In this document: piece after piece, positions 28,382 through 60,212 of the stretch
Numbering within the stretch: the first letter of the stretch is position 1
Layout of the letters: the number at the start of each line of letters is the position of its first letter
Origin: Blastocatellia bacterium
GTDB lineage: Bacteria; Acidobacteriota; Blastocatellia; Chloracidobacteriales; JADJPF01
DNA: 64,000 nucleotides
Direction: 5' to 3'
NCBI GenBank assembly: GCA_025057015.1
Contig: JANWYG010000022.1
Coordinates: forward strand, 26,864 to 90,863
Program-made: the position numbers and the translations under genes
The notes under the pieces: model-generated
What the model saw: the letters and a program-made list of their open reading frames with translations, nothing else
What the model was told of the DNA's origin: nothing
Database searches by the model: none

Positions 28382-29374
28382 ATGCGCTTCGAGTATCCAT
28401 GGGTACTGCTACTGCTTACGTTGAACTTTCCGCTAGCGTTTCTTCTAGGTTCAAAGGCTAGATTACGTCTTCCTAGTACTACGGCTATTTCTAGAACTGT
28501 AGGCAAGAGCCTCAGGTTAAAACTCGCCCGTTACAGGCCGTTTCTTCAGTTGCTCGTGTTTAGCTTGATAGTAATAGCTCTTGCTAGGCCACAGACGCTG
28601 CGGCAAGTCGAACAGGTCAAAGCAGAGGTGATAGACATCATCATAACCTTAGACATCTCGCTGAGCATGGGAGCGCGAGACTTTGGCACAGAAACAAGGC
28701 TAGAAGTTGCAAAGCGCTTGCTTGATGATTTTGTAGCAAGGCGCAAAGGTGACAGGTTAGGTCTGATAACTTTCGCCGCTTATAGTCAACTGCGCTGCCC
28801 ATTGACGCTCGATCATGAGGTGCTCCGGCAAGTGCTTTCTGAAGTGGAGCTAGTTGATCGCGAGGATCTGGAGGCCAACGGTACTGCTATAGGACTGGCT
28901 ATATCGAGCGGGGTGGATCACCTAAGGCATTCTGCCACGAAGAGTCGCATTCTAGTCTTGTTGACCGATGGAGACAACAACATTTCTACCGTAGAGCCAG
29001 AAACAGCTGCTGAGGTTGCACGCGTCATGGGTGTGAAAGTCTATGCCGTAGGCATAGGAAGCCAAGATTTTGTAGAGATGCCAAGCACTGATCCTGCCGA
29101 TCCAGTCGGAACTTATAAGTTACAGCGAGCAGGCTTTAATGAGGAGCTGCTTAAGACAATAGCGGCTATCACTTCTGGAAAATATTTTCCAGCAGCCGAT
29201 TCTAACTCGCTTGAGGGCGTGCTTGCTGAAATAGATAATCTCGAACGAACGAAAATGGAGCTCGAGCGGTACGAACATTACGGCGAACGGTATACCGTAT
29301 TTGTTTTCCTGGCTACCGGGTTATTGCTGCTGGATCTGCTGCTTGAACACACCTACTTGAGGGTACTGCCGTAG
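28382..29374 (+). CDS. batA: BatA-like vWA domain protein
   Basis: ALARPQ, DISLSM (MIDAS), DRLGL..F, PLTLD, GTAIG, LTDG. Confidence 0.88.
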   Translation: MRFEYPWVLLLLTLNFPLAFLLGSKARLRLPSTTAISRTVGKSLRLKLARYRPFLQLLVFSLIVIALARPQTLRQVEQVKAEVIDIIITLDISLSMGARDFGTETRLEVAKRLLDDFVARRKGDRLGLITFAAYSQLRCPLTLDHEVLRQVLSEVELVDREDLEANGTAIGLAISSGVDHLRHSATKSRILVLLTDGDNNISTVEPETAAEVARVMGVKVYAVGIGSQDFVEMPSTDPADPVGTYKLQRAGFNEELLKTIAAITSGKYFPAADSNSLEGVLAEIDNLERTKMELERYEHYGERYTVFVFLATGLLLLDLLLEHTYLRVLP

Positions 29375-30369
29375 TGGAAGATTTTCGTTTCAAACACCCG
29401 GAGTACTTGTATCTGATATTGCTGCTACCGCTGCTGGCACTAGTGATACATCTGCTAATAGCTCGCAGACGCAAAGCTATGGAGCTGTTCTGTAGGAACG
29501 CAGACCGTTCCCTAGCTCTGAGAATTCACTTATATAGGGCGCGAGCAGGACTGACGATCTTGGTATTTCTGTCTCTGCTTCTTGCTCTTGCTCGCCCACA
29601 GTGGGGAGCTGCAGAAGGAGTCAAAGCTCAGGGCGTAGACATGATCTTGGCTGTAGATGTTTCACTTAGCATGTTGGCAGACGACGAACTACCTTCTAGA
29701 CTGGACAGAGCCCGCCGAGTTGCTAGGGATGTTGTCGATCACTTCAAGTCGGGCCGTATCGGAGTGATAGCCTTTGCCGGTAGCAGTAGTGCTACTGTGC
29801 CGCTTACTTTTGACGTTGCTGCAGTACATAGTTTCTTGAAAGACCTGAACGTCAGACTGGCAGATGTTCCCGGCACATCTGTAGCAGGAGCCATTCGCCG
29901 GGCAGTCAAAAGCTTAAAGGACCTGCAGCGAAGCTCTAAGCTTGTAATAGTAGTTTCTGACGGTGAAGACCAGGATGATGCTCCACTAAGAGCAGTCGCT
30001 GCAGCTGCAAAAGAAGCTGCCGAGTATAATGTGGTGATAGTTACCGTGGGTATAGGCTCTACGCAAGGCAGCACAATACCGCTAGGATCTTTGGGGCTAC
30101 TTGGAGTAAAGCGCGACTCGGAAGGGAAGGTAGTAATCACTCGGCTGGAAGAAGAAACTTTAAAAGTGGCAGCGGAAACTACAGGAGGCATTTATCTACG
30201 TGCTGAGCCAAACGGTAGTGAAGTCAACGAGATAATCAAGTTTGTCGAGCGCATGAAAAAAGGCGAAATCGAGGTCAATGCTCGAGATCGCAAAGATCGG
30301 TATCATTATCCCCTCTGTGCAGCTCTGGTCTTATTGCTTGTGGAAATGCTGATTCTACGAAAAACTTAA
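29374..30369 (+). CDS. batB: BatB-like vWA domain protein
   Basis: ALARPQWG, DVSLSMLA.D..PSRL, SDGED, GIGS..G..IP, VITRL.E..L. Confidence 0.85.
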   Translation: MEDFRFKHPEYLYLILLLPLLALVIHLLIARRRKAMELFCRNADRSLALRIHLYRARAGLTILVFLSLLLALARPQWGAAEGVKAQGVDMILAVDVSLSMLADDELPSRLDRARRVARDVVDHFKSGRIGVIAFAGSSSATVPLTFDVAAVHSFLKDLNVRLADVPGTSVAGAIRRAVKSLKDLQRSSKLVIVVSDGEDQDDAPLRAVAAAAKEAAEYNVVIVTVGIGSTQGSTIPLGSLGLLGVKRDSEGKVVITRLEEETLKVAAETTGGIYLRAEPNGSEVNEIIKFVERMKKGEIEVNARDRKDRYHYPLCAALVLLLVEMLILRKT

Positions 30370-30426
30370 ATTTTTGTGGCAACAGTTAGGCTAATTCGGA
30401 CGATGACTTGAGTAGGAGAAGTTGGA

Positions 30427-30696
30427 ATGCAGCACCAAGGGAATCTTGAAATAGCTCTTACTCTTGAGATTTTAGAGAAAATAGGTATAGAAAGGGCAAC
30501 CGCTATTTGGAAATGGCTTGTGGATCCTGAAGGTAATCCTGTTCCTGAAGGACTGAAAGGCGAAGAAGTGATGGGGATTTATCTTCGCAATACCAAGTTG
30601 CTCGAACGTTTGAGGGAAATAGTCGCCAGTCTAGAGAGCCTACGTGGCGGTATAGCAAACAAGCCGCAATTGAATAAAGGACCTATGCGCATCTGA
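30427..30696 (+). CDS. Hypothetical protein (89 aa)
   Basis: AGGAG upstream; fills the gap ahead of the lipase-like gene. Confidence 0.6.
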   Translation: MQHQGNLEIALTLEILEKIGIERATAIWKWLVDPEGNPVPEGLKGEEVMGIYLRNTKLLERLREIVASLESLRGGIANKPQLNKGPMRI

Positions 30697-30718
30697 GTTG
30701 AAAACATAGGAGGGATGT

Positions 30719-31873
30719 ATGGGTTTCAATATAGGTAATGTCGCAAATAATGTTGTAAATAATGTTCGAAATACACTCGATCAAATAGGCAGCCTGGTAA
30801 GAGATGTAGCGCAAAATGTTACCATTCAGAGTTTGTCCAGGCTTAGGGACATAGCAGATTTTGCGTCAAATCTGACGGGAGCGCGTATAGGAAGTGGGCT
30901 GCTGGCGCCGCGAGGAGGTTTTCCTATAAGTCCGCTTGGCTACTCGGATAAGGTAGTAGAAGCTGGTGTAAAACTTGCGAAAGCACTCTTCTCGAAATCA
31001 CCTGATGCTGAATATGATGGTAGAATTGAAACTTATCCGAAGGGACAGAATCTTGGATCAGAGCCCAAAGTATATATCATAAACGGAATACAGACGGATC
31101 TAGCCGGCCGTGAGGCTTTGGCTGTGGAGACGGCTAACAAGCTGGGGGTAAACGTCAACCTGATACATAACTCTACGGGTGGTAGTGGTCTAATAGGCGC
31201 TGCTAAAGATTTAGCTGAGTGCATAGGTCAGCTTGTGTTGGGAATACCCAGCAAACCTTCTCAAACGCTAGCAAACGAGATTTTTAAGAATCTTACTGCG
31301 AATCCTCCTAAGAAAATGGAGTTGATAGGCTACAGTCAGGGCAGCATAATGGTGGCACATGCTGTCTCAATGGCGATAGAGAGGCTCAAGAGAGCCGGTT
31401 ATAGCGACGAGCAGATCCGCTCGTTGATGAGCCAAAGCGTCAAGGTCAAGTTGGTAGGGACACCTATAGACATAAGCAATCCGATGCACACCATCTTAAA
31501 CGTACCGGGAGGCAAGCATTTAAGCTGGTATTTTACCATGGAAGACCGGTTGATTTCTGGGCGAGGAGTGCCGTTTAATGAGGTAGTAAATAGCGAAGCT
31601 GGTCGACGCGGCGAACTTGCTGAGGCGAACTTCCACACTATCCGTCATGAAAAGGATCTAGTAGCTACTGTGGTTCGAGACCTTGGTATTGATGATCTCG
31701 CCAGGTTGGCAAGTCCTGCGACCAGGGGGCTGTATTTAGCAGAGTTAGGTGCTAGAATAGCATACTCGCTGATCGGCTCGGCCGTAGAGGGAGGTGATCC
31801 CTTTGCCTATCATGGTTACTACAACGTCTACTTGCCTTATATGTTGAGTGAAGGGTTGTTACGAGCGAAATAG
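30719..31873 (+). CDS. Alpha/beta-hydrolase (lipase-like) protein with an Asn/Val-rich N-terminal extension; putative secreted effector
   Basis: AGGAGG RBS; IINGIQT, LIHNST, GYSQG nucleophile elbow, HEKDLV, late His (AYH). Confidence 0.75.
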   Translation: MGFNIGNVANNVVNNVRNTLDQIGSLVRDVAQNVTIQSLSRLRDIADFASNLTGARIGSGLLAPRGGFPISPLGYSDKVVEAGVKLAKALFSKSPDAEYDGRIETYPKGQNLGSEPKVYIINGIQTDLAGREALAVETANKLGVNVNLIHNSTGGSGLIGAAKDLAECIGQLVLGIPSKPSQTLANEIFKNLTANPPKKMELIGYSQGSIMVAHAVSMAIERLKRAGYSDEQIRSLMSQSVKVKLVGTPIDISNPMHTILNVPGGKHLSWYFTMEDRLISGRGVPFNEVVNSEAGRRGELAEANFHTIRHEKDLVATVVRDLGIDDLARLASPATRGLYLAELGARIAYSLIGSAVEGGDPFAYHGYYNVYLPYMLSEGLLRAK

Positions 31874-31884
31874 CGGAGTGATTG

Positions 31885-32421
31885 ATGAATCAAGACGTAG
31901 CTCAACTAGCTGAAATGGTGAGGCAGTCCCTGAAGGAGTCTCTTCAGGGACGTAAATCTTTTAGGGAAGCTTTCGGGCTAAGCGAAGAAGAAATAACTGC
32001 ACTTGCTGGCGCTGCTTGCGAGATGGCCGAACAAGGCCGCAACGAAGAAGCGCTCGCTATGCTCGAAGGGCTCTTTGTTCTTGATCCGGAAAATCTCCAT
32101 GTGCACAACTGTCTAGGTTCGCTTTATATGCGTCTAGACAGGAGGAAGCTTGCCGAACAGGAGTTTGAATACGTGCTTGCACGCACACCTGACGATATAG
32201 CTGCGAATACCAACCTCGGAGAACTGCTTTTTGAGCAAGGTGAGTTGGAACGTGCTGTAGAGAAGCTTCGCAAAGCTGTAGAGCTTGATCCGGAAGGGAA
32301 AAGTCTTTTTGCGAATCGTGCTCGCAGCATACTTGGCCTTATAGCTACTCTCGCAAAAGAGCTTCAAGAAAACGGCCCTGAGGCTATGGAGCAACTGCGA
32401 AAGCAGCTTCTGTCAAAGTAA
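31885..32421 (+). CDS. TPR protein resembling SycD/LcrH type III secretion chaperones
   Basis: G.SFREAFGLSEEE, EQGRNEEA...EGL..LDP, three TPRs, DPEGKS..ANRAR. Confidence 0.75.
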   Translation: MNQDVAQLAEMVRQSLKESLQGRKSFREAFGLSEEEITALAGAACEMAEQGRNEEALAMLEGLFVLDPENLHVHNCLGSLYMRLDRRKLAEQEFEYVLARTPDDIAANTNLGELLFEQGELERAVEKLRKAVELDPEGKSLFANRARSILGLIATLAKELQENGPEAMEQLRKQLLSK

Positions 32422-32551
32422 CTCTAAGCTCACAAGTAGCCCACCGAAATTACTTTTTCAGAAAAAATCTTATATACTTTTATCTGCTCGTAGGCAGGAA
32501 CAACTTCGAGACGGCAAATTTTGAGTTTCAGGGAGAAGAGTCCGAAGATCT

Positions 32552-33190
32552 ATGGAAATTAAGCGCCTGAAATTTGATAGCCAGGGTAAGCTCCCTGTTA
32601 TCATACAAGACTCAAAAACTTGTAAAATACTTGCATTGATCTATGTAGGAGCTGATGAACTCTCGCAGATTTTACAGACCGGGTGTTTGGAGCGTTTTAA
32701 CTTGCCGGCGGCAAGCTTGGCAGACGTAAGGGTAAGTAGCGAGTATGATTCACTTCTGATGCTTATCAGAGCTAATAGCGAAGTTGCATTGGGTAGCTAC
32801 CGCAGTTGCTTTGGGGGCGAACCAGATTCAAAATCCCAACAAGAGCAAGCACGCCTCGATGTTGTTAGGGAAAGTTCCCTCGATCTAGGTATCTTGCTAG
32901 ACGAGCTATATCGGCTAATAACTGATCGTAAGAAGCATCGGCCTGAAGGTTCGTATACCACGTATCTTTTCAATTCTGGGCCTGATAGGATCTTTAAAAA
33001 GATAGCGGAGGAGGCTGTAGAAGCTATCATAGCGGCAAAGAATCGTTCGAAACCGCAGGTTATAGCCGAGGTTTCAGACCTTCTCTACCATGTACTTGTG
33101 ATGCTATGTGAAATGGAGATACGTCTAGAAGATGTCTATCATGAGCTGAAAAAGAGAATGGGTGGGCAAGTAACTTCTGTAGTACAGTAG
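32552..33190 (+). CDS. hisIE: HisIE-like protein: degenerate PRA-CH domain plus apparently intact phosphoribosyl-ATP pyrophosphatase
   Basis: LKFDSQGKLPVIIQD start; EGSYTTYLF, KKIAEEAVE, EVSDLLYH intact; SRSR/KGETSG/DCD/CHTG motifs absent. Confidence 0.85.
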   Translation: MEIKRLKFDSQGKLPVIIQDSKTCKILALIYVGADELSQILQTGCLERFNLPAASLADVRVSSEYDSLLMLIRANSEVALGSYRSCFGGEPDSKSQQEQARLDVVRESSLDLGILLDELYRLITDRKKHRPEGSYTTYLFNSGPDRIFKKIAEEAVEAIIAAKNRSKPQVIAEVSDLLYHVLVMLCEMEIRLEDVYHELKKRMGGQVTSVVQ

Positions 33191-33197
33191 CAATGCA

Positions 33198-34679
33198 ATG
33201 ACCTATCGTCCAAAAAACTATGAAGAGTTTGCAGCTTACGCTTCTACGGCTAACGTCATTCCGGTAAGCAAGAAGTTGCCTTCCGACATGCTAACACCCG
33301 TAGCAGCCTACCTGAAGTTGAGAGGGGCAGGGAAGCGCTCTTTCTTGCTTGAATCGATAGAGGGCAATGAAAGGATCTCGCGTTATTCCTTCATTGGCGT
33401 AGATCCCTACTTGGTAATTAAGGCGCGAGGTGAAAATCTAGAGTACGAGCAAGGCGACGGTATCGTAAGCGTCGAGAAGGGTGATATATTCACGTCTCTA
33501 AGCAAGTACCTGGCTAGCTTTGTAGTGGCAAAGGTTCCCGACATGCCGCCATTCGTAGGAGGAGGTGTTGGCTACATAGGATATGATGCTATAAGGAGCT
33601 TAGAGCGACTTGGTGGTGGGTTGGCGGACGACCTAGGAATATATGACTCCGTAGTGATGTTCTTTTCTGCAGCGGTTATTTTTGATCATGTCAAACAGAG
33701 CTTACTCATAGTAGCAGGTGTATTTGTAAGTCAGGAAGGTGCTAGCAGGCAGCTTTATGAATCGGCACTTGCTACGATATCCGATATAGAGAACGTACTT
33801 TTCGGTGTCGTTCCGGCTATTGACAAAACTACAAGGACTTTGCCACCGGCTATCCGTAGCAACGTTACTAAGGAAGGCTTTGAGTCGGCAGTAGAAAAGA
33901 TAAGGGTTCATATTAGGGAAGGGGAAATACTGCAGGCAACTCTTTCGGTCAGGGTTGTAATAGATAATTTTGCTCCTGCTTTTCAGCTCTATAGAGCGAT
34001 ACGTACGCTCAGTCCTGCGCCTTATATGTTTTATCTGGACATTGGGGAGTACCAGTTGATGGGTGCCTCATATGACATGCTGTTGCGCTGCACAGGACGA
34101 CGGCTTGACTATAGGATTGCGGCCGGAAGCTGCGGGCGAGGTGCTACTGATGTAGAAGATCTGTTGCTTGCAGAGGAGCTACGTGCAGATGAGAAAAAGG
34201 TAGCAGAGCATACTCTAGCGGTGGATCTGGCAAGGGGAGATCTAGGCCGTGTCTGTGATTATGGGTCGATAGAGTTATTTGAACTGATGATCGTAGAAAA
34301 ATACTCTCAGATGATGCAGATGGTTTCGAGCATCAAAGGTCGGCTAGCTAACAATAAGACCAGCATCGATGCTTTGGCTGCATGTTTACCGGCAGCTAAG
34401 GTGTCTGGGGCCCCCAAGCTTCGTGCAATTAAGTTAATGGATGAACTAGAAAACACTCGCCGTGGCCCTTACGCAGGTGTTATTCTTTACTTAGATTATT
34501 CCAGAAATCTAGACTCTTGTATTACAATAAGTACAGTCATTTGCAAGCAAGGTCAGGCTTACGCGCAGGCAGGCGAAAGCATAGTAGCAGATTCTGTTCC
34601 TGACAAAAAGTACCTAGAGACTATAAACAAAGTCCGCCTGCTTCTTAAATCGGTAGAGATAGCTGAGAAAGAAATTTAG
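33198..34679 (+). CDS. Anthranilate synthase component I (TrpE/MST) paralog, probably catalytically impaired
   Basis: FLLES, RYSFIG, PPFVGGGVGY, AEH...VDLAR, SGAPKLRA; several catalytic positions substituted. Confidence 0.88.
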   Translation: MTYRPKNYEEFAAYASTANVIPVSKKLPSDMLTPVAAYLKLRGAGKRSFLLESIEGNERISRYSFIGVDPYLVIKARGENLEYEQGDGIVSVEKGDIFTSLSKYLASFVVAKVPDMPPFVGGGVGYIGYDAIRSLERLGGGLADDLGIYDSVVMFFSAAVIFDHVKQSLLIVAGVFVSQEGASRQLYESALATISDIENVLFGVVPAIDKTTRTLPPAIRSNVTKEGFESAVEKIRVHIREGEILQATLSVRVVIDNFAPAFQLYRAIRTLSPAPYMFYLDIGEYQLMGASYDMLLRCTGRRLDYRIAAGSCGRGATDVEDLLLAEELRADEKKVAEHTLAVDLARGDLGRVCDYGSIELFELMIVEKYSQMMQMVSSIKGRLANNKTSIDALAACLPAAKVSGAPKLRAIKLMDELENTRRGPYAGVILYLDYSRNLDSCITISTVICKQGQAYAQAGESIVADSVPDKKYLETINKVRLLLKSVEIAEKEI

Positions 34680-34725
34680 CTTACAGAGAGCCTGTGTATA
34701 GGCCGAGAGGGCGGAGATATAGAAT

Positions 34726-37700
34726 ATGCTAGTCAAGCGTTGTCCAAGCTGTCAGAATGAGTATTCGGCGACGCTTCCTACCTGCCCGCAAGATGGTACG
34801 TCGTTGAGAGAAGTGATAGCTGTGGATCCGATGATAGGACAGGTTTTGGAGGGAAAGTATAGGATAGAGTCACTTTTGGGTTCTGGCGGAATGGCAGCCG
34901 TCTACCTTGCTACTCATAGAGAATTAGATAGTAAGGTAGCTATTAAGGTATTGAGTTCAGAGTCGCTCAAGAACTCTCTTGCAGTAGCCCGTTTTCGGCG
35001 TGAGGCACAAGCTGTAGCTAAGATAAGGCATCGTTCGGTTGTGGCCATCTATGATATTGGTAAGCTTCCGAGCGGAAACACCTTTCTAGTAATGGAGTAC
35101 ATAGAAGGTCATTCGCTACGGGAGGAACTGAAGAAGCACAAAAGATTGGACATTAGAAGGGCGGTACAGATTGCTACAGAAATCTGTGAAGGCATGCAAG
35201 CAGCCCACGACGTCGGAATAATACACCGGGACTTGAAGCCAGAAAACATAATGATAGAGTCGCGTAAGAGCAACAGCTACATCAAAATAGTAGACTTTGG
35301 CGTTGCTGAGCTCTGCGAAAATGCCGTAAACGACGCTCTGACTCGCTTGACGGAAGCGGGTATGATGGTAGGCACGCCCTACTATATCTCCCCTGAACAA
35401 TGCAAAGGTGAAGAACTAGACCATCGGTCTGACATTTACTCGTTGGGAATAATGCTCTACGAGCTGCTTACAGGCGAAGTGCCGTTCAGGGGCAGGACCT
35501 TATCGGCAGTGATACTGCAACATGTCTCTGAGCCTGCACCCTCGATTCGACAGGTACGGCCCGAAGTGAGTAAGGCACTGGAATCAGTGGTGCTAAGCGC
35601 CCTGTCTAAGTCCAAGGAGGATAGGCCGGCCAGCATGTTGGAGTTTGCACAGGAGCTGACCCGCGCAGTTGAGCAGACTGCTAGCCTAGGGAACACTATT
35701 GTTGGCTCGTCGCTATCTGTCTCAAATTTGCCCTCAGCTACTAATACGGGAAGCATAAAACGTACTACTGGTCAGATTCGCAGAACCGGGATGCTCACTC
35801 ATGATAGTCTGACCGGGCTACATTCTTATGTCTACTTCTTAGGACAACTGGAAGAAGCCGTCGCCCGAGCACTGCAAACAGGTGAGTCGCTAGTAGTAGC
35901 TTTAATTGGGATAGACCGATTTAAGAAGTTCAATGAACATGGGTACTTAGTCGGTGATCAGGTACTGCGCGAGGTTGCTACGCTTGTTAACAAGCGAGTG
36001 CCAAGCGAAGCAAAACTGAGCAGGCTCGAAGGTGATAACTTTGTATTGATGCTGACCGGTCAGTATGCGAAAGAAGCCGACTTACTGCTTGAAAATATTG
36101 TTAGGACTGTGGAGGAGACCGAAATCCGCTTGCCAGTCTTGCCAGAAAGCTTTGCAAGAGTGAGTATTTCCGTCGGTACAGCCGTGCTGCGTGAACATGC
36201 CCAGACGGCTTCCGAGTTGATCGATTTCGCTAAACAGTCGCTCAGACAGGCAAAACAACGTAAATACGCTGAATTAGCTACTGACTCTACTCCGCAAATT
36301 AGCTTCGAGCACTTTGTCGGACGCAGAAAAGAGCTTGAAAAGCTCCAAAAAGAGCTCGAGCTTACCGTCTCTGGCAAAGGTAGAGTCTTGTTTATATCCG
36401 GTGATGCAGGCGTAGGAAAGTCCCGCCTAGTGGATGAGTTTCGGCGTAGATTAATAGGCAAGGATATCCTCTTCCTACAAGGGCGGTTTTACGAATCTGG
36501 GGGTACGGTGCCTTACAAGGTTTTCTACGATTCTTTGCGCAGCTCTATCCACTACTTGGCGGAAAATTCAGAAGAGCTAGAACTCATATTCGGTCCGCTT
36601 TCTGAGCGAGTAAGGCAAGACTTTGCTGACGACGACTCGATTTCTTCTCTGCTTGGCAGCGTAACGCTCAGCGGTAATGCGGAGCAGGAGAAGTATAAGC
36701 TCTTTGATTATTTGTCGAGGATATACTCCAGCCTTTCGCATGTAAGGCCAGTAGTGCTTTTCTTAGACGATCTACAATGGGCAGATGAGCTGGCGTTGGA
36801 CTTTCTATCCTACCTTACTAGGGTCGTCCAACATAGCCGTGTCTTTGTCATAGCTACGATGCGGGAGTGGGAAGTCTCGTCCGAGCAGAGTCCCGTCCGT
36901 AGTTGGCTGCGGCAGATGGGTAGATACTGCTCCTATGAGCAGATCAAGCTTTCGCCGCTTACTGAATCTGAGGTACGTCAGATAATAGACCAAACTTTTG
37001 GGAAGATTCAGATCTCACCCGGAACACTATCACTTATCTGCTCTGAGACTAAAGGCAACGCTTTCTACTTAATGGAAGTGATGAGGTTGCTCATTCAGGA
37101 CGAGGTAATAAGGTGGGTCGACGGCAGGTGGCGCGTCGAGGACGTAAATGAGATCCGTCTGCCTACATCGGTTGTCGACCTTGTGGAAGCACATCTTGCA
37201 AAGCTGCCGGATAAGACCCTGGAGATATTCGTCACCGCTGCAGTGCTTGGAGATGGGTTCTCTTTCGATGTACTTGCATCGGTTACGGATATGGATGAAG
37301 ACGATTTGTTGCCAATTATCGAGGAGGGACTAAAAAAGCGCATCATCAAAGAAGAGGTAAGCGGACGTGAAGAACGCTATGTATTCTATCAGAGTACCAT
37401 GCGCAAGGTTCTCTATGAGCGTGTCAGCAGACGGCGTCGTAAAAAGCTGCACCAACAGATAGGGCACAAGCTGGAAGAGATGTATGGCTCTAAGGTGAAT
37501 AAGATAGCTGCCGAACTCGCTTACCACTACTATCAGGCAGAAGATTATGGCCGTTCGCTCAAGTATTCGATAGAAGCCGGAAATCTGGCTTGGCGAGTAC
37601 TAGCTGTCTCAGAAGCGCTCAAGTACTACGAGTGGACAGAAAAGTCGATTCGCAATCTAATGGCGACTCTGCGTGAAGAAGGCGGCAAAGGATCTAACCA

Positions 37701-38916
37701 AGTTCTGCAACTTGCCGCTTGTGGCCTACACATAGAAGTGGATGCGTTGGCGTTGTACCACCTCAACTACGGTAGATTGTTGATGCAGATAGGCCATCAT
37801 AGCAAAGCTGAGGCAGAGCTGCGTCAAACGCTCGAACTTGCCAGACAGCTGAAATCGCTAAAGCTGATGGGACGTGCGTTTACAGCCCTAGGTGAGCTTT
37901 ATAGGCAGTACGGACAGTTGACACGTGGCCTTGAGTATGGAGAACAGGGACTTACTTTGCTCAGCTCTACTGAAGATACTGAATGGGAAGTTCAGGCGCT
38001 GTTAGTCGTAGGAGCTGCTCATGAGGGCCTAGGGGCATTTTCTTCTGCACTAGAAACCTACAAAAGTGCTCTGGCATTAGCGCGTAAGCTCCGCGACCAA
38101 ATTAACGAGGCTAACGCTCTCTGGGGTATAGGATTTACTTATTACAGGTTTGGACAGTATGAACGAGCTAGAGCTTCGGCCCAACAAGGGCTAGATATAG
38201 CCACCAAAAGCAACGATAAGCTGGGACAACAACGGTGCCATAGCTTGCTTGGAAGCGTCTACCTGGGTATAGGACGATTTGAGGAAGGGCTGAAGCACTT
38301 TGAGTCTGCTCTTAGAATAGCGCGCGAGCTAGGGTATAGACTTAGCGAATCAGTCATATTGAACAACATAGGCGAGTGTTTTAGGCTGCGTAAAATGTAC
38401 AAGGATGCACGAGAGAACTATGAACAGGCGCTTCTGCTCGCCCAAGAGACGAACGATCGAGTAACTCAAGGCATCGTGAAACTCAGCCTTGGATTGGTAG
38501 AGCAGGACAAAGGAAACTACAATAAATCTCTGGAACTGTTGGAAGAAGCTCTGCGTCTTGCCTGTGAAACAGGAGCTACGCCCACACAACTAGAAATCTC
38601 CCTTGCTCGAGGGAAATCGCTGTTCGAGCTCGGCAAGATTGAGGAGGCCTTGGAGCACTACCATCACGCGCTGGACCTGGCGCGACATTCCGGTAGCCCA
38701 GTTTTCGAATGGCAAGCGCTCTATGGTCTCGCAAAGTGTGAACGTCGTCTTGGAAATGCGGCCGAAGCACTGAAGCTAGTACAGCTCAGCTTGGAAATTG
38801 TCGAGCAAATGTCGTCTGATCTGAAAAGTTCCTCTGATAGAGAGAATTTTCTCAGAGATAAACAGATGCTTTATCTCGATCTAGTGGAGCTTACTGAAGC
38901 TAAGAAGATAGTCTAG
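34726..38916 (+). CDS. Zinc ribbon - Ser/Thr kinase - degenerate GGDEF - STAND ATPase - TPR multidomain protein
   Basis: CPSC..CPQDG; GSGGMA, VAIK, HRDLKPEN, DFG; HDSLTGL..DRFK..EGDNF; GDAGVGKS, LFLDDLQWAD; MalT-type TPRs. Confidence 0.92.
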   Translation: MLVKRCPSCQNEYSATLPTCPQDGTSLREVIAVDPMIGQVLEGKYRIESLLGSGGMAAVYLATHRELDSKVAIKVLSSESLKNSLAVARFRREAQAVAKIRHRSVVAIYDIGKLPSGNTFLVMEYIEGHSLREELKKHKRLDIRRAVQIATEICEGMQAAHDVGIIHRDLKPENIMIESRKSNSYIKIVDFGVAELCENAVNDALTRLTEAGMMVGTPYYISPEQCKGEELDHRSDIYSLGIMLYELLTGEVPFRGRTLSAVILQHVSEPAPSIRQVRPEVSKALESVVLSALSKSKEDRPASMLEFAQELTRAVEQTASLGNTIVGSSLSVSNLPSATNTGSIKRTTGQIRRTGMLTHDSLTGLHSYVYFLGQLEEAVARALQTGESLVVALIGIDRFKKFNEHGYLVGDQVLREVATLVNKRVPSEAKLSRLEGDNFVLMLTGQYAKEADLLLENIVRTVEETEIRLPVLPESFARVSISVGTAVLREHAQTASELIDFAKQSLRQAKQRKYAELATDSTPQISFEHFVGRRKELEKLQKELELTVSGKGRVLFISGDAGVGKSRLVDEFRRRLIGKDILFLQGRFYESGGTVPYKVFYDSLRSSIHYLAENSEELELIFGPLSERVRQDFADDDSISSLLGSVTLSGNAEQEKYKLFDYLSRIYSSLSHVRPVVLFLDDLQWADELALDFLSYLTRVVQHSRVFVIATMREWEVSSEQSPVRSWLRQMGRYCSYEQIKLSPLTESEVRQIIDQTFGKIQISPGTLSLICSETKGNAFYLMEVMRLLIQDEVIRWVDGRWRVEDVNEIRLPTSVVDLVEAHLAKLPDKTLEIFVTAAVLGDGFSFDVLASVTDMDEDDLLPIIEEGLKKRIIKEEVSGREERYVFYQSTMRKVLYERVSRRRRKKLHQQIGHKLEEMYGSKVNKIAAELAYHYYQAEDYGRSLKYSIEAGNLAWRVLAVSEALKYYEWTEKSIRNLMATLREEGGKGSNQVLQLAACGLHIEVDALALYHLNYGRLLMQIGHHSKAEAELRQTLELARQLKSLKLMGRAFTALGELYRQYGQLTRGLEYGEQGLTLLSSTEDTEWEVQALLVVGAAHEGLGAFSSALETYKSALALARKLRDQINEANALWGIGFTYYRFGQYERARASAQQGLDIATKSNDKLGQQRCHSLLGSVYLGIGRFEEGLKHFESALRIARELGYRLSESVILNNIGECFRLRKMYKDARENYEQALLLAQETNDRVTQGIVKLSLGLVEQDKGNYNKSLELLEEALRLACETGATPTQLEISLARGKSLFELGKIEEALEHYHHALDLARHSGSPVFEWQALYGLAKCERRLGNAAEALKLVQLSLEIVEQMSSDLKSSSDRENFLRDKQMLYLDLVELTEAKKIV

Positions 38917-38937
38917 CTTTCACTCTCTTGGAGAGTT

Positions 38938-39645
38938 ATGAAGCTGCTAAAAGTAACACTGATTTGCCTGCTGGTTTGCCTGTCTGCGTCTCCGACGCAG
39001 AAGAAACGTTCATCTCGACCTGGCAGAATGCAACAAGCAACGCAGCCTGTTAAGCCCCCGCCGCCTGTACCTCTGCCGCAGGAACCGGAAATCATCCGGC
39101 CGCCGGAGAAAAAGCTCTCCATAGAAGAAATTAGCAATCTGCGCGCTGTGATGGAGACTTCCTTAGGTAACATAGTTCTGGATTTCTATCCTGAAGCTGC
39201 TCCAGAACACGTTCGACAGTTCGTCTGGCTTAGCCAAGTAGGTTACTTCGACGGCATGTCGTTCAGTAGGATACTGCCTAAGCTGCTTATCCAAAGCGGA
39301 AACTATGCCTCTTGGCAGGAAGATAATCCTAATCTGAAAAAGCGCTTCGACATACCGAAGCTCAAGGCAGAATATAGTCCCGCTGCCCGACATGACCGCG
39401 GAGCCTTGTCAATGGCCAGACCTAACGACGATCCAGACGGCGGTACGTGTCACTTTTTCATCTGTGCTACGCGTATACCAGCTCTCGATGACAAATACAC
39501 AGTCTTCGGATATGTTTCAGAAGGCATAGAAGTAGTAGAAAAGATAGCCGAGCAGCCTGTTGATGGTGATAAGCCCTTGAATAGGATAGAAATTAAGCGG
39601 GTTAGCATAGTGCAGAAGGCTTCCAATGATCCTAGTAATAGATAA
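38938..39645 (+). CDS. Exported cyclophilin-type peptidyl-prolyl isomerase
   Basis: Signal peptide, Pro-rich linker, GYFDG..FSR, HDRGALSMAR, LDDKYTVFG. Confidence 0.88.
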   Translation: MKLLKVTLICLLVCLSASPTQKKRSSRPGRMQQATQPVKPPPPVPLPQEPEIIRPPEKKLSIEEISNLRAVMETSLGNIVLDFYPEAAPEHVRQFVWLSQVGYFDGMSFSRILPKLLIQSGNYASWQEDNPNLKKRFDIPKLKAEYSPAARHDRGALSMARPNDDPDGGTCHFFICATRIPALDDKYTVFGYVSEGIEVVEKIAEQPVDGDKPLNRIEIKRVSIVQKASNDPSNR

Positions 39646-40192
39646 TTATGACTCCTTCACCTATAACCTGGTGCAGTACATAGGAGAATTTGACCAGTCC
39701 GTCGCAGTCTATCGTAATGATCGGATCAGCATAGAAGAGATAAAGCGACTGTCGCCCAAGCGAATAGTAATCTCACCAGGCCCGGGACGTCCAGAGACTG
39801 CGGGAATTAGCCTAGAAGTAGTGCGTCAGCTGGGCAGCTATGTTCCCATACTAGGAGTATGTCTGGGTCATCAAGTAATAGCTGTCGCTTTTGGTGCTAA
39901 AGTAGTACACGCCCCTTACTTGATGCATGGTAAGACTAGCGAAATCTGTCATGACGGCCTTACTATATTCAAGGGGCTAGAGTATCGTTTTGCCGCAACG
40001 CGCTATCATTCGCTGATAGTTGACCGAGATAGCATACCACCGGTGCTTGAGGTAAGTGCTACGACGCCTGACGGGCTGGTGATGGGCCTGCGCCATAGGG
40101 AGTATCCAATAGAGGGTGTGCAGTTTCATCCAGAGTCGATAATGACTACTTGTGGTAAGACGCTAATTAAAAACTTTCTGAGCTTGAGATAA
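39626..40192 (+). CDS. trpG: Anthranilate/aminodeoxychorismate synthase component II (glutamine amidotransferase)
   Basis: IDNYDSFTYNL, SPGPG, GVCLGHQ, RYHSL, QFHPES (complete Cys-His-Glu triad). Confidence 0.93.
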   Translation: MILVIDNYDSFTYNLVQYIGEFDQSVAVYRNDRISIEEIKRLSPKRIVISPGPGRPETAGISLEVVRQLGSYVPILGVCLGHQVIAVAFGAKVVHAPYLMHGKTSEICHDGLTIFKGLEYRFAATRYHSLIVDRDSIPPVLEVSATTPDGLVMGLRHREYPIEGVQFHPESIMTTCGKTLIKNFLSLR

Positions 40193-40499
40193 AGACTAAG
40201 CTGCTCGAATCAAGCTGAGCTACTTGCTTTTCAGCCTTCAGGCATTGAGAAGACAGTTGCCCTGTGGCTGAGCAGACTTTTGACTCGAAGAGATGTCTCT
40301 TTATCAGCTCGACAGGCTCTAGTAAATCGTACTCAAGCCGATTAATGGCCTTGAAAGAGGACTTTTTCGTCCTCTCTAGGCACATTGGCCCGTCAGCATA
40401 CTCTGAAATCCACGGCTCGGCCTTAAAGGTCCTGCTAGAGAAGAGGTGACCTGTCCTGGTGGATGCAGGACCTAGCCTAGGCGACAGGTATATCGTCAT
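40167..40499 (-). CDS. Possible hypothetical protein
   Basis: ATGA overlap with the PNP stop codon and fills a 300-bp gap; no recognisable motif. Confidence 0.3.
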   Translation of the reverse strand: MTIYLSPRLGPASTRTGHLFSSRTFKAEPWISEYADGPMCLERTKKSSFKAINRLEYDLLEPVELIKRHLFESKVCSATGQLSSQCLKAEKQVAQLDSSSLVFISSSESF

Positions 40500-42977: not shown

Positions 42978-44111
42978 TTACTTCAAGAGCTCGTCGACGG
43001 TCAGCTCTGGAGCAGCTTTGCCGTGCTCATAGACTAATAGCCCTATGTCCTCGTAGTAAGGACGTATTCGCGAGCTTAATAAGCCGATGCGCTTTAGGTT
43101 GGGAATCACGCGCCGAAACATAGTCTGTCTAAAGAGATTGAGCAACCGACTGTCAAGTATTAGCTTGTCCCAATCTGAGCGCTTCATTTTGTGGGAGTAA
43201 TACTCATCATAGACTTCGTGCATGAGGAATCTGTTTCTGAGTAGCAGCGATAGCTCGAATGCCAGGTCTTCGCGGTCCCTGCGTTCAGTCTCAGGAAGCT
43301 GTTTGTAGAACACTTCCAGTGCTAGCACGCCGTAGTGTACATGTCGGGCTTCGTCTTTTATGACATACTTGAGAATTTCTTTGAGCAGCGGGTCTGAAGT
43401 AATTTGTCGAATGGTGCCAAAAGCTCCTAGGGCAAGCCCTTCGATCATGATCTGCATACCTAGAAACTTTATGTCCCACCGACTATCTGTCATCAATGTA
43501 TCTATGACAACATACAGATTGTCATTTATTTCATAGAGTTTGTTAAGCTTTTCGGTCAAATATCTGTGAAAAGCTTCCACGTGACGGCCTTCATCTACGA
43601 CTTGAGTACTTCCGTAGAGTTTTGCGTCAAGCCATGGAACAGCTTCTATTACCTGTGCTGAGGCATAGAGTGCGCCTTGTTCGCCGTGGAGGAACTGGCT
43701 GAGCAGCCAACTAAGGACGGCGTATCGTTGCTCTGCACGTTCTTTATCGTTCATCTTTTCCCAAAGAGGTAGACTAGAGGAAGGGACAAATTCGTCTGGT
43801 AGCAGTGTCTCTTTTTGGGGATCTACATCCTGAGACCAGTCTATATCTTTGGAGACGTTCCACTGAGCTGTCTTAGCAGCCTCATAAAGACGAGTCATTT
43901 CGGGAAATTCGCGCCTGTAGTGCCAGTTGAAATTGGCATTGTAGACCACCGCAAGTTCGGTCTGCTCGTGTTTTTTAGCACACTGCTTGATAAAACCTCT
44001 GAAAGCTGGCCCTAGGAGCGAGGCTAGGACACGTACGTTTTTGACCATAGTGGCTTCGCGTAGCAGCGGTCCACTCTGCATTAGGTTATTTACAGATCGA
44101 CTTATGTCCAT
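42978..44111 (-). CDS. Ferritin-like di-iron protein (AurF/N-oxygenase-like)
   Basis: SQFLHGEQGAL, DEGRH, EGLALG, DEARH di-iron motifs. Confidence 0.85.
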   Translation of the reverse strand: MDISRSVNNLMQSGPLLREATMVKNVRVLASLLGPAFRGFIKQCAKKHEQTELAVVYNANFNWHYRREFPEMTRLYEAAKTAQWNVSKDIDWSQDVDPQKETLLPDEFVPSSSLPLWEKMNDKERAEQRYAVLSWLLSQFLHGEQGALYASAQVIEAVPWLDAKLYGSTQVVDEGRHVEAFHRYLTEKLNKLYEINDNLYVVIDTLMTDSRWDIKFLGMQIMIEGLALGAFGTIRQITSDPLLKEILKYVIKDEARHVHYGVLALEVFYKQLPETERRDREDLAFELSLLLRNRFLMHEVYDEYYSHKMKRSDWDKLILDSRLLNLFRQTMFRRVIPNLKRIGLLSSRIRPYYEDIGLLVYEHGKAAPELTVDELLK

Positions 44112-58217: not shown

Positions 58218-60212
58218 TTATTTTGAAGCAGTTTGTTCAGGGCCAAATATCTTGTCGAGGGTCTCTTTATATACGACCAACTTGCCGCTTTCCTTGAGTT
58301 TCTTCTTTATGCCGTCGATGTAAGCGTTGAAGGTCATTTCGCGTCGATCGAAAGCAAGTCTCTCTTCAATTGACCTCGACTGTTCGTTGAATTTGGTCAT
58401 ATCGGGTTCGGTGCGCTTGACTGCAGCTATGGCAATGTATCTATCACTTACTACGACAGGTTTATCGGTTGCAGTACCTTCCTTCAGCTGCATTATAGCG
58501 GCCTCTAATTGTGTTCCGGAACCTGCGGAGTCAAGATAAGAGCCAACCTTGTAGTCATCTTTGGTGTAGGTCTTGAGTCCTTCTTTTTCTGCGCTGGCTT
58601 TGAGTGCGTCAGCTTTACCTGCAGCAGCAGCAATTGCTGCTTGCACCTTTTGTTTGCAAATTTCTCTGGCTTTCTCTTGTTTGTACTTCTGCTCTACTTT
58701 GGTCTTAGCTTCATCGAAACTCGGAATAAGGCCAGGTTCACGGGTGTCTGCTAGCATAGGTATAGCAAAGCCGCCGCGTATACCTACTTTCTCACCAACG
58801 TCGCCGGGCTTGAGTTTAGCGGTAGCTTCCTCGAACGAAGGATTGCTGCCTATATCTGGCACGTCATCGCCTTCTGCAAAGAAGGGAGTTTGTTTATATG
58901 TCTCTTCAGGTTTGCTGCCTATCTTTTCGGCTATGATTGCTGCTACTGCTTTTATATCTTTCTTTTCTCGCAGTAGTTTTGCAGCTTCATCAGCTATCTC
59001 TGAAGCACGTTTGTATGAAAGTCGGTTGCGTGCCGAAGCAAGTAGTGCTTCTTTTGCCTCTTCGAAGGTCTTAGTCCGGCGTTCGACAAGTTTGAGTATG
59101 TAGTATGCCTTGCCTTCGTGGATAGGATCGCTTATCTCGCCTTCTTTTAGGTTGAGAGCATTCATCAAGTAACTGCCGGGTTTGATGTCTTCTCTCTTGA
59201 TGAAACCAAGGTCACCTCCCTTGTCTTTTGTAGTGGTGTCTTGGGAGTAACCGCGTGCAAGTGCGGCAAAATCTTCTGGCTTGCCTGTGAGAGTGCCACG
59301 TGCGCGAGATACGAGTTCGTTTGCTTTCTCGCGTGCCGTAGGTTCGTCTTTATCTACAAGATACTTGATCACTATCTGACTTACTCGGATGCCAGCTATG
59401 TGCTTTTCAGGATCGAAGTCCTTTCTGAGTTCTTCGTCAGATATGGTCATTGTTTTTGAGACTTGTTCTTGACTGACGTAGACATAGTCTATCTTGCGTT
59501 GTTTTTTATCTGATTTGAAGTCTTCCTTTCTTTGCTCGAAGAAGGCTCTTAGCTCCTCTTCTGTGGGTTTTATCTTATCTAGGAACTCTGCCGGCTCGGC
59601 CACAGTATAGACGAGGTTAAAGGAGGTATTCTCGCGATTAAACTGTTCTTGTATTTCTTTCTTCGAGATGGAGACGCTTCCGGTGACAAAACTGCGTAGC
59701 TTTTCCTCAGCAAGGCTTTCTCTCAGAGATTGCTCGTACTCTTCTAGAGACTGGCCAGAACGTTCTACGAACTTTTTATACTTGTCAAATCCTACCCATT
59801 TTCCGTCGACAGTGAATTGTTCACGGATATGGTTTTGCAGTTCTCTATCGGTGGTTTCTAGGCCTAGGCGTTCGACCTCCATAGCTATGATTTTCCTCTT
59901 TATCAGGTTGTTTAACGCCGTTTTGTCAAGCCCCATAGTCTTGAGCGAGGCATAAGTCATGCCTGAATCGTCCTTTGACAGAAACCCCTGATATGCTCTC
60001 ATCAGCAGGTCCAGACTTTTGGTATATTCCAACGCTGTGATTTCTTTGTCTCCTACCTTAGCTATAAGTTCGTCTTCGCTGACGTTGCTAGAAGTTCCTG
60101 GAATACCCCTAGTGGGCGCGTAAAACATTACCATACCGAATACTACTATGACTGAGATAAAAACCCAGATGAGTTTCTGAGAGCGTTTCCTCTCGTTGAG
60201 AAACCTGAGCAT
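58218..60212 (-). CDS. PpiD/SurA-like membrane-anchored periplasmic chaperone with parvulin domain
   Basis: N-terminal TM, IAKVGDKEIT SurA-N domain, FAALARGYSQD..TKDKGGDLG rotamase. Confidence 0.88.
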   Translation of the reverse strand: MLRFLNERKRSQKLIWVFISVIVVFGMVMFYAPTRGIPGTSSNVSEDELIAKVGDKEITALEYTKSLDLLMRAYQGFLSKDDSGMTYASLKTMGLDKTALNNLIKRKIIAMEVERLGLETTDRELQNHIREQFTVDGKWVGFDKYKKFVERSGQSLEEYEQSLRESLAEEKLRSFVTGSVSISKKEIQEQFNRENTSFNLVYTVAEPAEFLDKIKPTEEELRAFFEQRKEDFKSDKKQRKIDYVYVSQEQVSKTMTISDEELRKDFDPEKHIAGIRVSQIVIKYLVDKDEPTAREKANELVSRARGTLTGKPEDFAALARGYSQDTTTKDKGGDLGFIKREDIKPGSYLMNALNLKEGEISDPIHEGKAYYILKLVERRTKTFEEAKEALLASARNRLSYKRASEIADEAAKLLREKKDIKAVAAIIAEKIGSKPEETYKQTPFFAEGDDVPDIGSNPSFEEATAKLKPGDVGEKVGIRGGFAIPMLADTREPGLIPSFDEAKTKVEQKYKQEKAREICKQKVQAAIAAAAGKADALKASAEKEGLKTYTKDDYKVGSYLDSAGSGTQLEAAIMQLKEGTATDKPVVVSDRYIAIAAVKRTEPDMTKFNEQSRSIEERLAFDRREMTFNAYIDGIKKKLKESGKLVVYKETLDKIFGPEQTASK

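Follow-up and report, generated by a model that had tools for sequence, protein, structure and literature searches.

Sole, motif-degenerate TrpE and HisI in a probable relic of a his-trp operon in a hot-spring Blastocatellia bacterium

Five adjacent genes at positions 32552-40192 of a 64,000-nucleotide stretch of Blastocatellia DNA (contig JANWYG010000022.1 of assembly GCA_025057015.1; "the window" means this whole stretch) encode a HisIE-like protein, a TrpE-like protein, a large kinase-GGDEF-STAND-TPR signalling protein, a cyclophilin and TrpG. These genes are probably the relic of an ancestral his-trp operon, in which the orphaned sole trpE and hisI are dead yet have been kept open, rather than sensors wired to the kinase. 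The genome carrying the window, G000, is a metagenome-assembled genome (MAG) of 3.33 Mb in 23 contigs, 97.25% complete, from Blastocatellia (Acidobacteriota), and genomes of the same family measure 4.6-10.3 Mb; relatives are called G001 and so on, database homologues carry P-numbers, and an asterisk marks a degenerate form. All five open reading frames (ORFs) lie on the + strand, with gaps of 7, 46 and 21 bp and then a 20-bp overlap. A sequence-only reading of the window had described this spacing, and the ORF coordinates match it exactly; orthologue alignments bear out the motif losses it saw in the full-length ORFs of HisI, TrpE and the GGDEF domain, and profile scores and motifs agree with it that HisE, the kinase and TrpG are intact. 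Its interpretation, in which duplicated enzymes had become metabolite sensors for the kinase, mostly fails.

None of the conserved catalytic blocks has stayed canonical in TrpE*, and G000 is alone in this among the aligned orthologues. SPE reads SYD, RPIAGTR reads RIAAGSC, SHVMH reads SQMMQ, IRT reads IST, GAGIV reads GESIV and PEKEY reads PDKKY, and a further block has changed from GDIFQVVLSQRF to GEILQATLSVRV; the replacements E293D, T311S, H371Q, H374Q, R445S, A460E, G461S, E334K and E471K all stand at columns where conservation across 117 homologues reaches 98% or more. These departures are beyond chance: 49 of the 183 columns conserved to this depth differ in G000, against 4 and 9 in two controls. 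The two-domain fold is present (PF04715, 113 bits; PF00425, 227 bits), and the protein keeps GAPK, one Glu of each ExxE pair and the LLES..RYS region, the region of the Trp feedback site. Its score against the TrpE equivalog TIGR00564, 438.5 bits, lies below the cut-off of 517.7, which the canonical sisters P0005 and P0006 exceed with 574.0 and 577.8. Like canonical anthranilate synthases of solved structure (PDB 7bvd, 5cwa, 1qdl, 1i7q), with which it aligns end to end over two domains (E=1.5e-87 to 7bvd), TrpE* has a TrpG-type amidotransferase, here in the same cluster; the solved TrpEs carry SPE, PIAGT, HVMH, IRT and G[AG]G[IV]VADS, whereas TrpE* is altered in those blocks and its genome lacks the rest of the pathway. 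For the homologue MbtI, PMC8008425 describes the SPE-type Glu as the general acid and two ExxE pairs as Mg ligands, and by motif spacing E293D, E334K and E471K would fall at the equivalents of that Glu and of one Glu in each Mg pair. TrpE* thus departs from TrpE at conserved catalytic and Mg-site residues, whose roles are in part those given in PMC8008425.

The HisI part of HisIE* is likewise changed in G000 alone among the aligned orthologues. An in-frame deletion has removed 13 residues of the conserved core SRSR..WxKG.TSGN, DCDGD has become SSEYD and PACH has become VALG, two of the three Cys-containing motifs are gone, and 39 of 60 family-invariant columns are altered (65%). PF01502 (HisI, PRA-CH) has no match in this gene or anywhere else in G000, and against the bifunctional HisIE equivalog NF002747 the protein reaches 133.4 bits, short of the cut-off of 187 that its sisters pass with 270 and 277. 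What is left of a bifunctional HisIE is the PRA-PH half: the HisE domain matches PF01503 with 86.5 bits and TIGR03188 with 105.4 bits (cut-off 42.7), its rate of G000-unique change, 0.143 per site, is near that of the kinase (0.151), and its replacements are conservative (mean BLOSUM62 1.00). Codon-position GC is flattened in the HisI part (0.495/0.400/0.442), and the HisIE branch leading to G000 carries at least two indels, all in frame. At the level of conserved motifs, both the HisI and the TrpE of G000 are catalytically dead.

A comparable protein type is common across Blastocatellia: HisE proteins of about 215 amino acids (P0155-P0237) with a conserved, non-catalytic HisI-like N-domain, in which the catalytic core is deleted, NADGSS stands for DCDGD and no Cys ligands are found. 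Examples such as P0155, P0156, P0233 and that of G027 resemble hisIE* in their length of about 215 residues, in a HisI-like N-half without catalytic core or Cys/Asp motifs and in an intact PRA-PH C-half, but they form a conserved clade of their own, whereas hisIE* derives from the canonical HisIE of its family and has a canonical sister, P0122. G027 encodes its vestigial type at L032:4361-4984 and a separate standalone HisI on L019, whereas G000 has no other HisI.

The degenerate enzymes are the only copies in the genome. PF00425 finds two chorismate-binding enzymes in G000, TrpE* and an enzyme on contig C4 that, with PIKGT and all catalytic blocks intact, is of PabB type; trpE* is the sole anthranilate-synthase-I orthologue, and the tree places TrpE* within the family's single-copy canonical TrpE clade. 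With no second HisI and with TrpE* orthologous to canonical genes, the proposal of duplicated enzymes fails, and a search of the genome for intact trpE or hisI copies found none, this TrpE being the only one, just as the first half of one of the refuting conditions in the sequence-only reading had it. The pathways around them are also gone. There is no hisD (which 3 of 4 relatives have), trpC (4 of 4), trpA (8 of 8) or hisG (7 of 8) in G000, hisA/hisF leave a single partial match of 26.9 bits (present in 8 of 8), and tblastn with the hisF, trpD, trpC, trpF, trpB and trpA ORFs from the cluster of G001 finds nothing in G000 at E<=1e-6. G000 has thus lost the Trp and His pathways, and the organism is very probably auxotrophic for both amino acids. 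Incompleteness of the genome is an unlikely cause, since the missing genes number at least 11 and come from several loci, and two deletions flank the cluster within one contig.

Chorismate synthase, DHPS, PDT, ArgG and the intact PabB are kept. TrpG scores 240.1 bits against TIGR00566 (cut-off 121.05), carries the nucleophile motif GVCLGHQ and is the only PabA-type amidotransferase in G000, the next-best tblastn matches reaching at most 36% identity. The retention of PabB, DHPS and chorismate synthase offers a reason for keeping it: trpG would serve as the sole PabA-type partner of PabB, on the way to p-aminobenzoate (pABA) and folate. Of 9 genomes in the family 8 lack KARI/IlvC, the one exception being 6% contaminated; this suggests that branched-chain amino-acid auxotrophy is ancestral in the family and that the loss of IlvC is older than the Trp and His losses of G000. 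About 3 kb from trpG, a 377-residue ORF on the - strand (window 42978-44111) has a weak match to AurF (p-aminobenzoate N-oxygenase), at 28.2 bits under the cut-off of 29.6.

Where does the arrangement of the five genes come from? The order hisIE-trpE-kinase-PPIase-trpG, in which the PPIase is the cyclophilin, recurs with canonical HisI and TrpE in 6 of 6 same-family loci examined, so that the conservation in relatives for which the sequence-only reading had proposed to look is indeed there. Since the relatives share this order with canonical enzymes, the association with the kinase predates the degeneration and is independent of it; the cluster was not built around degenerate enzymes, as had been suggested, and the degeneracy of its GGDEF domain is family-wide. 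In the relatives hisF lies directly 5' of hisIE, where G000 has instead a spacer and a Bat-like gene set, and in G001 trpD-trpC-trpF-trpB-trpA follow 3' of trpG. In G000 the genes beyond trpG and a hairpin are convergent, on the minus strand. The more distant G039 has hisIE-trpE-PPIase-PPIase-trpG with no kinase in between, from which we infer that the kinase was inserted in an ancestor of the G000 family. In that genome two tandem cyclophilin genes separate trpE and trpG, and trpG (L034, C119, 7826-8380 onward) lies in an open frame of 543 residues that reaches a TrpD-like part, probably a TrpG-TrpD fusion. The 675-residue gene that precedes hisF in the relatives lies some 25 kb from the cluster in G000, in the opposite orientation (window 58236-60212).

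Orthologues of the signalling protein, at the same position in family relatives, are 54-67% identical to it. VAIK, HRDLKPEN and DFG are kept in 7 of 7 aligned orthologues, as in Hanks-type kinases. The GGDEF fold is detected with 98 bits, and its signature is degenerate in the same 7 of 7, reading EGDNF in G000 and PGDGF in the other six; 24 homologues have the consensus GDxF rather than the GG[DE]EF of diguanylate cyclases. This degeneracy is ancestral, family-wide and unrelated to the decay of HisI and TrpE. The domain order (Hanks kinase, nucleotide-cyclase-like domain, AAA_16/STAND, TPR) is shared with the TOMM-type fusions of TIGR03903, against which the protein scores 351.7 bits, short of the cut-off of 705.75; unlike in those fusions, a degenerate GGDEF stands in the middle in place of a class III cyclase, and no TOMM gene context is present. 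G000 has about 55 Ser/Thr-kinase loci in its 3.33 Mb, with about four STAND/TPR paralogues, and the cyclophilin is probably exported, judging from its signal-like N-terminus, so the cluster is functionally mixed. One kinase paralogue, at C8:55042-58098, has the same GGDEF-like/STAND/TPR architecture at 27-37% identity. A predicted complex of TrpE* with residues 905-1396 of the kinase protein scored 0.00 in a run that included no controls, and weighs neither way.

How do the dead genes evolve? The closest database homologues of TrpE*, P0003-5, are canonical and 60-61% identical, and TrpE* groups with them (SH-aLRT 99, from a quick IQ-TREE run, as for all tree support given here) on a terminal branch of 0.70 against 0.05-0.06. 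With G001 as the outgroup, changes unique to G000 and to its sister number 106 and 26 in TrpE, 208 and 65 in the kinase protein, 53 and 8 in the kinase domain, 44 and 5 in HisI, and 14 and 3 in HisE. Among deeply conserved columns of the kinase, 10 of 165 are changed in G000 (controls 1 and 0); TrpE*, with 49 of 183, stands out by the places at which its changes lie. On the TrpE* branch both indels are in frame, and codon-position GC is normal for coding sequence (GC1>GC3>GC2). In a BLOSUM test, replacements at conserved columns of TrpE* are milder than neutral (-0.06 vs -0.67+-0.23, P=0.005; 0.59 vs -0.45+-0.30, P=0.0003), with functional controls scoring above TrpE* in conservativeness. No stop codon interrupts the frame; in a neutral simulation of substitutions only, P(no stop) is 0.0075, 0.04 and 0.16 when 100, 70 and 40 replacements are assumed neutral. 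The positions changed in TrpE* coincide with those changed in a dead TrpE clade of the sister family f2 (22-23 vs 13.9 expected; P=0.003, 0.001, 0.011), while overlap with the changed positions of four functional paralogues is at chance level. These indirect tests favour residual constraint over a freely drifting pseudogene, though acceleration of the whole lineage weakens them, and purifying selection on a dead TrpE is clear for the f2 clade only. The earlier proposal that the dead enzymes are maintained survives in part: TrpE* seems to behave like a maintained protein, in its conservative replacements, in-frame indels and overlap with f2, but it is no duplicate.

Contigs of run X2, from a second hot-spring study, represent a near-identical strain at about 6x depth, with 16 single-nucleotide differences over 19 kb, 11 of the 16 being C>T/G>A. 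In them trpE* has a 2-bp deletion, and the conserved kinase has two frameshifts along with one nonsense change (window 33271, 36199, 37610, 38608). These differences are probably low-coverage or assembly errors, and we draw no inference from them.

The f2 clade offers the closest comparison within the subfamily. In G009, G010, G014 and G015 the TrpE next to hisIE (L036:4904-6400, L035:3966-5555, L040:2856-4583 and L037:4764-6194, respectively) is degenerate, with SHE/SHD, VVAGM/TIVGG, no HxxH and G[VI]PK, and it fails TIGR00564 with 437.9 and 444.4 bits, next to 438.5 for G000. This degenerate TrpE is under strong purifying selection: its dN/dS is 0.055 at dS 0.44, and that of canonical TrpE between G005 and G002 is 0.035-0.052. 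The proteins form their own clade (SH-aLRT 99), and a common ancestry of TrpE* with them is rejected, the tree separating the two. TrpE* and the f2 proteins belong to the same TrpE subfamily, adjoin hisIE, are degenerate in the same catalytic blocks and share more changed positions than expected by chance; in G009 these include both His>Gln replacements. The f2 form nevertheless arose independently, and it has no kinase, PPIase or trpG beside it, hisIE being its only conserved neighbour. In G009 and G010 a further TrpE, which is canonical, is encoded about 2 kb from trpC; a canonical TrpE of this type is also present in G011, and trpC is confirmed in G014 and G015. Dead-type TrpE accounts for 4 of 149 representatives from the nearest 150 clusters at 50% identity, with cluster representatives including P0343 and P0357, and is annotated as an ordinary anthranilate synthase wherever the source names it. 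A non-catalytic TrpE is not described in the literature as far as searches on anthranilate synthase and pseudoenzymes reach, supplementary files being outside their scope, and a search at the level of titles on Blastocatellia auxotrophy and Acidobacteria genome reduction returned nothing on the cluster. A homocysteine S-methyltransferase/MTHFR fusion gene lies 3' of the dead trpE in f2 (L035:6077-8020, L036:6607-8487), and in G010 a small 23S-rRNA-IVP-like ORF lies between the two.

We propose that an ancestral Blastocatellia supra-operon would have run hisF-hisIE-trpE-(STAND kinase)-PPIase-trpG, continuing in G001 with trpD-C-F-B-A. In a genome-reduced, fast-evolving hot-spring lineage that became auxotrophic for Trp and His, hisF and trpDCFBA would have been deleted from the two cluster ends, leaving trpG to survive as the only PabA-type amidotransferase for PabB, and the kinase and the exported cyclophilin to be kept, presumably, for unrelated roles of their own. 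Why would the frames of hisIE* and trpE* be held open? Either a residual, non-catalytic role may remain, in which the protein acts as a dead partner or a subunit that binds a ligand, in the manner of the selected degenerate TrpE of f2, or translation through both may be needed for HisE and for expression of the downstream genes. Given a relic operon, we judge a residual role for the dead genes and no role at all to be about evenly balanced. We also entertain, tentatively, the idea that the TrpE linked to hisIE in Blastocatellia performs a second function that is not catalytic, as a regulatory subunit binding chorismate or Trp or as a partner of TrpG/PabA or HisIE. If so, this function would be strong enough to hold a dead copy under purifying selection in f2 and to leave TrpE* open and fold-constrained in G000 after pathway loss, both Glu>Lys replacements at the presumed Mg site would be adaptations to metal-free ligand binding, and these proteins would represent a new family of anthranilate-synthase pseudoenzymes.

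Several observations weigh against the relic-operon reading or temper it. The whole G000 lineage is fast, the per-site excess of TrpE being only about 1.4 times that of the kinase, and when the no-stop test is calibrated for this acceleration P weakens to about 0.16-0.2, which alone is not decisive. TrpE* exceeds the controls to a roughly equal extent in each conservation class (about 24%, 22% and 17%), as full relaxation predicts and unlike the graded excess of the kinase; together with the 49 changed columns, this indicates that the ancestral catalytic constraints are gone. HisI* replacements are milder than neutral to a similar degree as those of TrpE*, and optimisation of the alignment in the gapped region may bias the BLOSUM test. 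Between G000 and G001 dS is saturated, beyond the range of a dN/dS estimate. Promoter and terminator scans around the cluster gave counts at shuffle expectation, so its operon status is putative; gene absences are inferred from a 23-contig MAG, with hisB, hisC and hisH outside the search; and the service of trpG to PabB is a conclusion from gene content.

Much of this is what one would expect if hisI* and trpE* were functionless cryptic pseudogenes that have yet to acquire a stop or frameshift, with their apparent constraint reflecting substitutions that preceded the pathway loss, selection against misfolding of a product that is still expressed, or selection that spares HisE, the kinase, the PPIase and trpG from polar effects. 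Such pure decay is possible, if in our view rather unlikely. It accords with the disappearance of both pathways, the flat excess, the calibrated no-stop probability and the flattened GC and heavily altered invariant columns of HisI*, as well as with the fact that these degenerate forms are known from a single genome, the protein cluster having one member and canonical closest homologues. It sits poorly, however, with the mildness of the replacements, the in-frame indels throughout, the non-random overlap with positions freed in the f2 dead clade, the normal coding GC pattern of TrpE* and the low dN/dS at which f2 holds its dead TrpE. The opposite possibility, that TrpE* or HisI* or both are still enzymes with divergent sites, making for instance anthranilate or another chorismate product for a purpose other than Trp, has the strong PF00425 signal, the available chorismate, the intact TrpG in the same cluster and the retained GAPK and ExxE Glu residues in its favour. 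We find it scarcely credible: with roles taken from PMC8008425 and mapped by motif spacing, E293D, E334K and E471K would fall at general-acid and Mg-pair equivalents; SHVMH has lost both its His, PIAGT its Thr, IRT its Arg and GAGIV its GAG, while the PabB of G000 keeps all of these; HisI* lacks its core segment and Cys motifs; and both proteins fail equivalog cut-offs that their sisters pass.

The sequence-only reading itself, in which HisI*, HisE and TrpE* sense Trp, chorismate or phosphoribosyl-ATP (PR-ATP) and feed the STAND/TPR Ser/Thr kinase, drew on the tight adjacency of trpE and the kinase, which is conserved in all six family loci, and is compatible with a TPR/STAND sensor module that has no assigned ligand and with the retained LLES..RYS region of the Trp feedback site. 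The same order nevertheless occurs with fully canonical enzymes, and the enzymes of G000 are not duplicates; the dead TrpE of f2 has no kinase neighbour, and G039 has the cluster without the kinase; the kinase is one of about 55 such loci with about four STAND/TPR paralogues, and the degeneracy of its GGDEF domain is ancestral. With hisG missing, PR-ATP should not be made in G000. We found no support for the link to the kinase, the pathways of the proposed signals are lost, and we regard this model as very improbable.

The nearest described case appears to be TrpA of Chlamydia trachomatis, and the relic cluster would belong to a known kind, pseudoenzymes or relics left after pathway loss. According to PMC8376405, that TrpA is full-length and catalytically impaired, with active-site mutations and partly relaxed purifying selection, and biochemical work showed that it activates TrpB four-fold, TrpB still being used for indole salvage. 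Both it and TrpE* are full-length trp-pathway subunits with active-site changes in an incomplete pathway. Unlike the chlamydial case as presented there (PMC8376405), G000 has no trp enzyme beyond TrpE/TrpG, and in TrpE* the canonical catalytic residues themselves are replaced.

The coordinates of the cluster and its surroundings are collected in the table below. The Bat-like set directly 5' of hisIE* (window 28382-32421, + strand) comprises VWA, VWA, two ORFs without a family and TPR.

Table. Features of the cluster in window coordinates (aa, amino acids).
Feature	Position	Strand	Description
A+T-rich spacer, 131-bp	32422..32551	none	5' of hisIE*; from reading the sequence
hisIE*	32552..33190	+	212 aa, single ORF; degenerate HisI-like N-domain and intact HisE (PRA-PH)
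HisI* part, aa 1-95	32552..32836	+	13-aa in-frame deletion and motif changes; no PF01502 match
HisE domain, aa 116-202	32897..33157	+	phosphoribosyl-ATP pyrophosphohydrolase, MazG-like; PF01503, TIGR03188; appears intact
trpE*	33198..34679	+	493 aa, full-length; Anth_synt_I_N and Chorismate_bind; catalytic blocks degenerate
Signalling protein	34726..38916	+	1396 aa; Ser/Thr kinase, degenerate GGDEF, STAND (AAA_16), TPR
Hanks-type kinase domain, aa 45-302	34858..35631	+	Pfam 184 bits; catalytic motifs intact
GGDEF-like domain, aa 358-513	35797..36264	+	degenerate signature EGDNF
AAA_16/STAND NTPase, aa 530-709	36313..36852	+	Walker A GDAGVGKS and Walker B LFLDD intact
TPR / MalT-like sensor region, about aa 1011-1361	37756..38808	+	Pfam
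Cyclophilin-type PPIase	38938..39645	+	235 aa; hydrophobic signal-like N-terminus
trpG (PabA/TrpG-type glutamine amidotransferase)	39626..40192	+	188 aa; GATase; intact
Weak terminator-like hairpin, directly 3' of trpG	40203..40220	+	a hint at most; counts at shuffle level

In conclusion, an attractive reading of these genes as a metabolite-sensing kinase system gives way to a documented pathway loss that left orphaned, dead enzymes behind. Automated annotation would call the organism positive for TrpE and HisIE despite its very probable auxotrophy, a point to heed when the metabolism of uncultured hot-spring Acidobacteria is modelled. The degenerate TrpE of f2, selected yet annotated as an ordinary anthranilate synthase, may have wider interest and is the part most worth following up.

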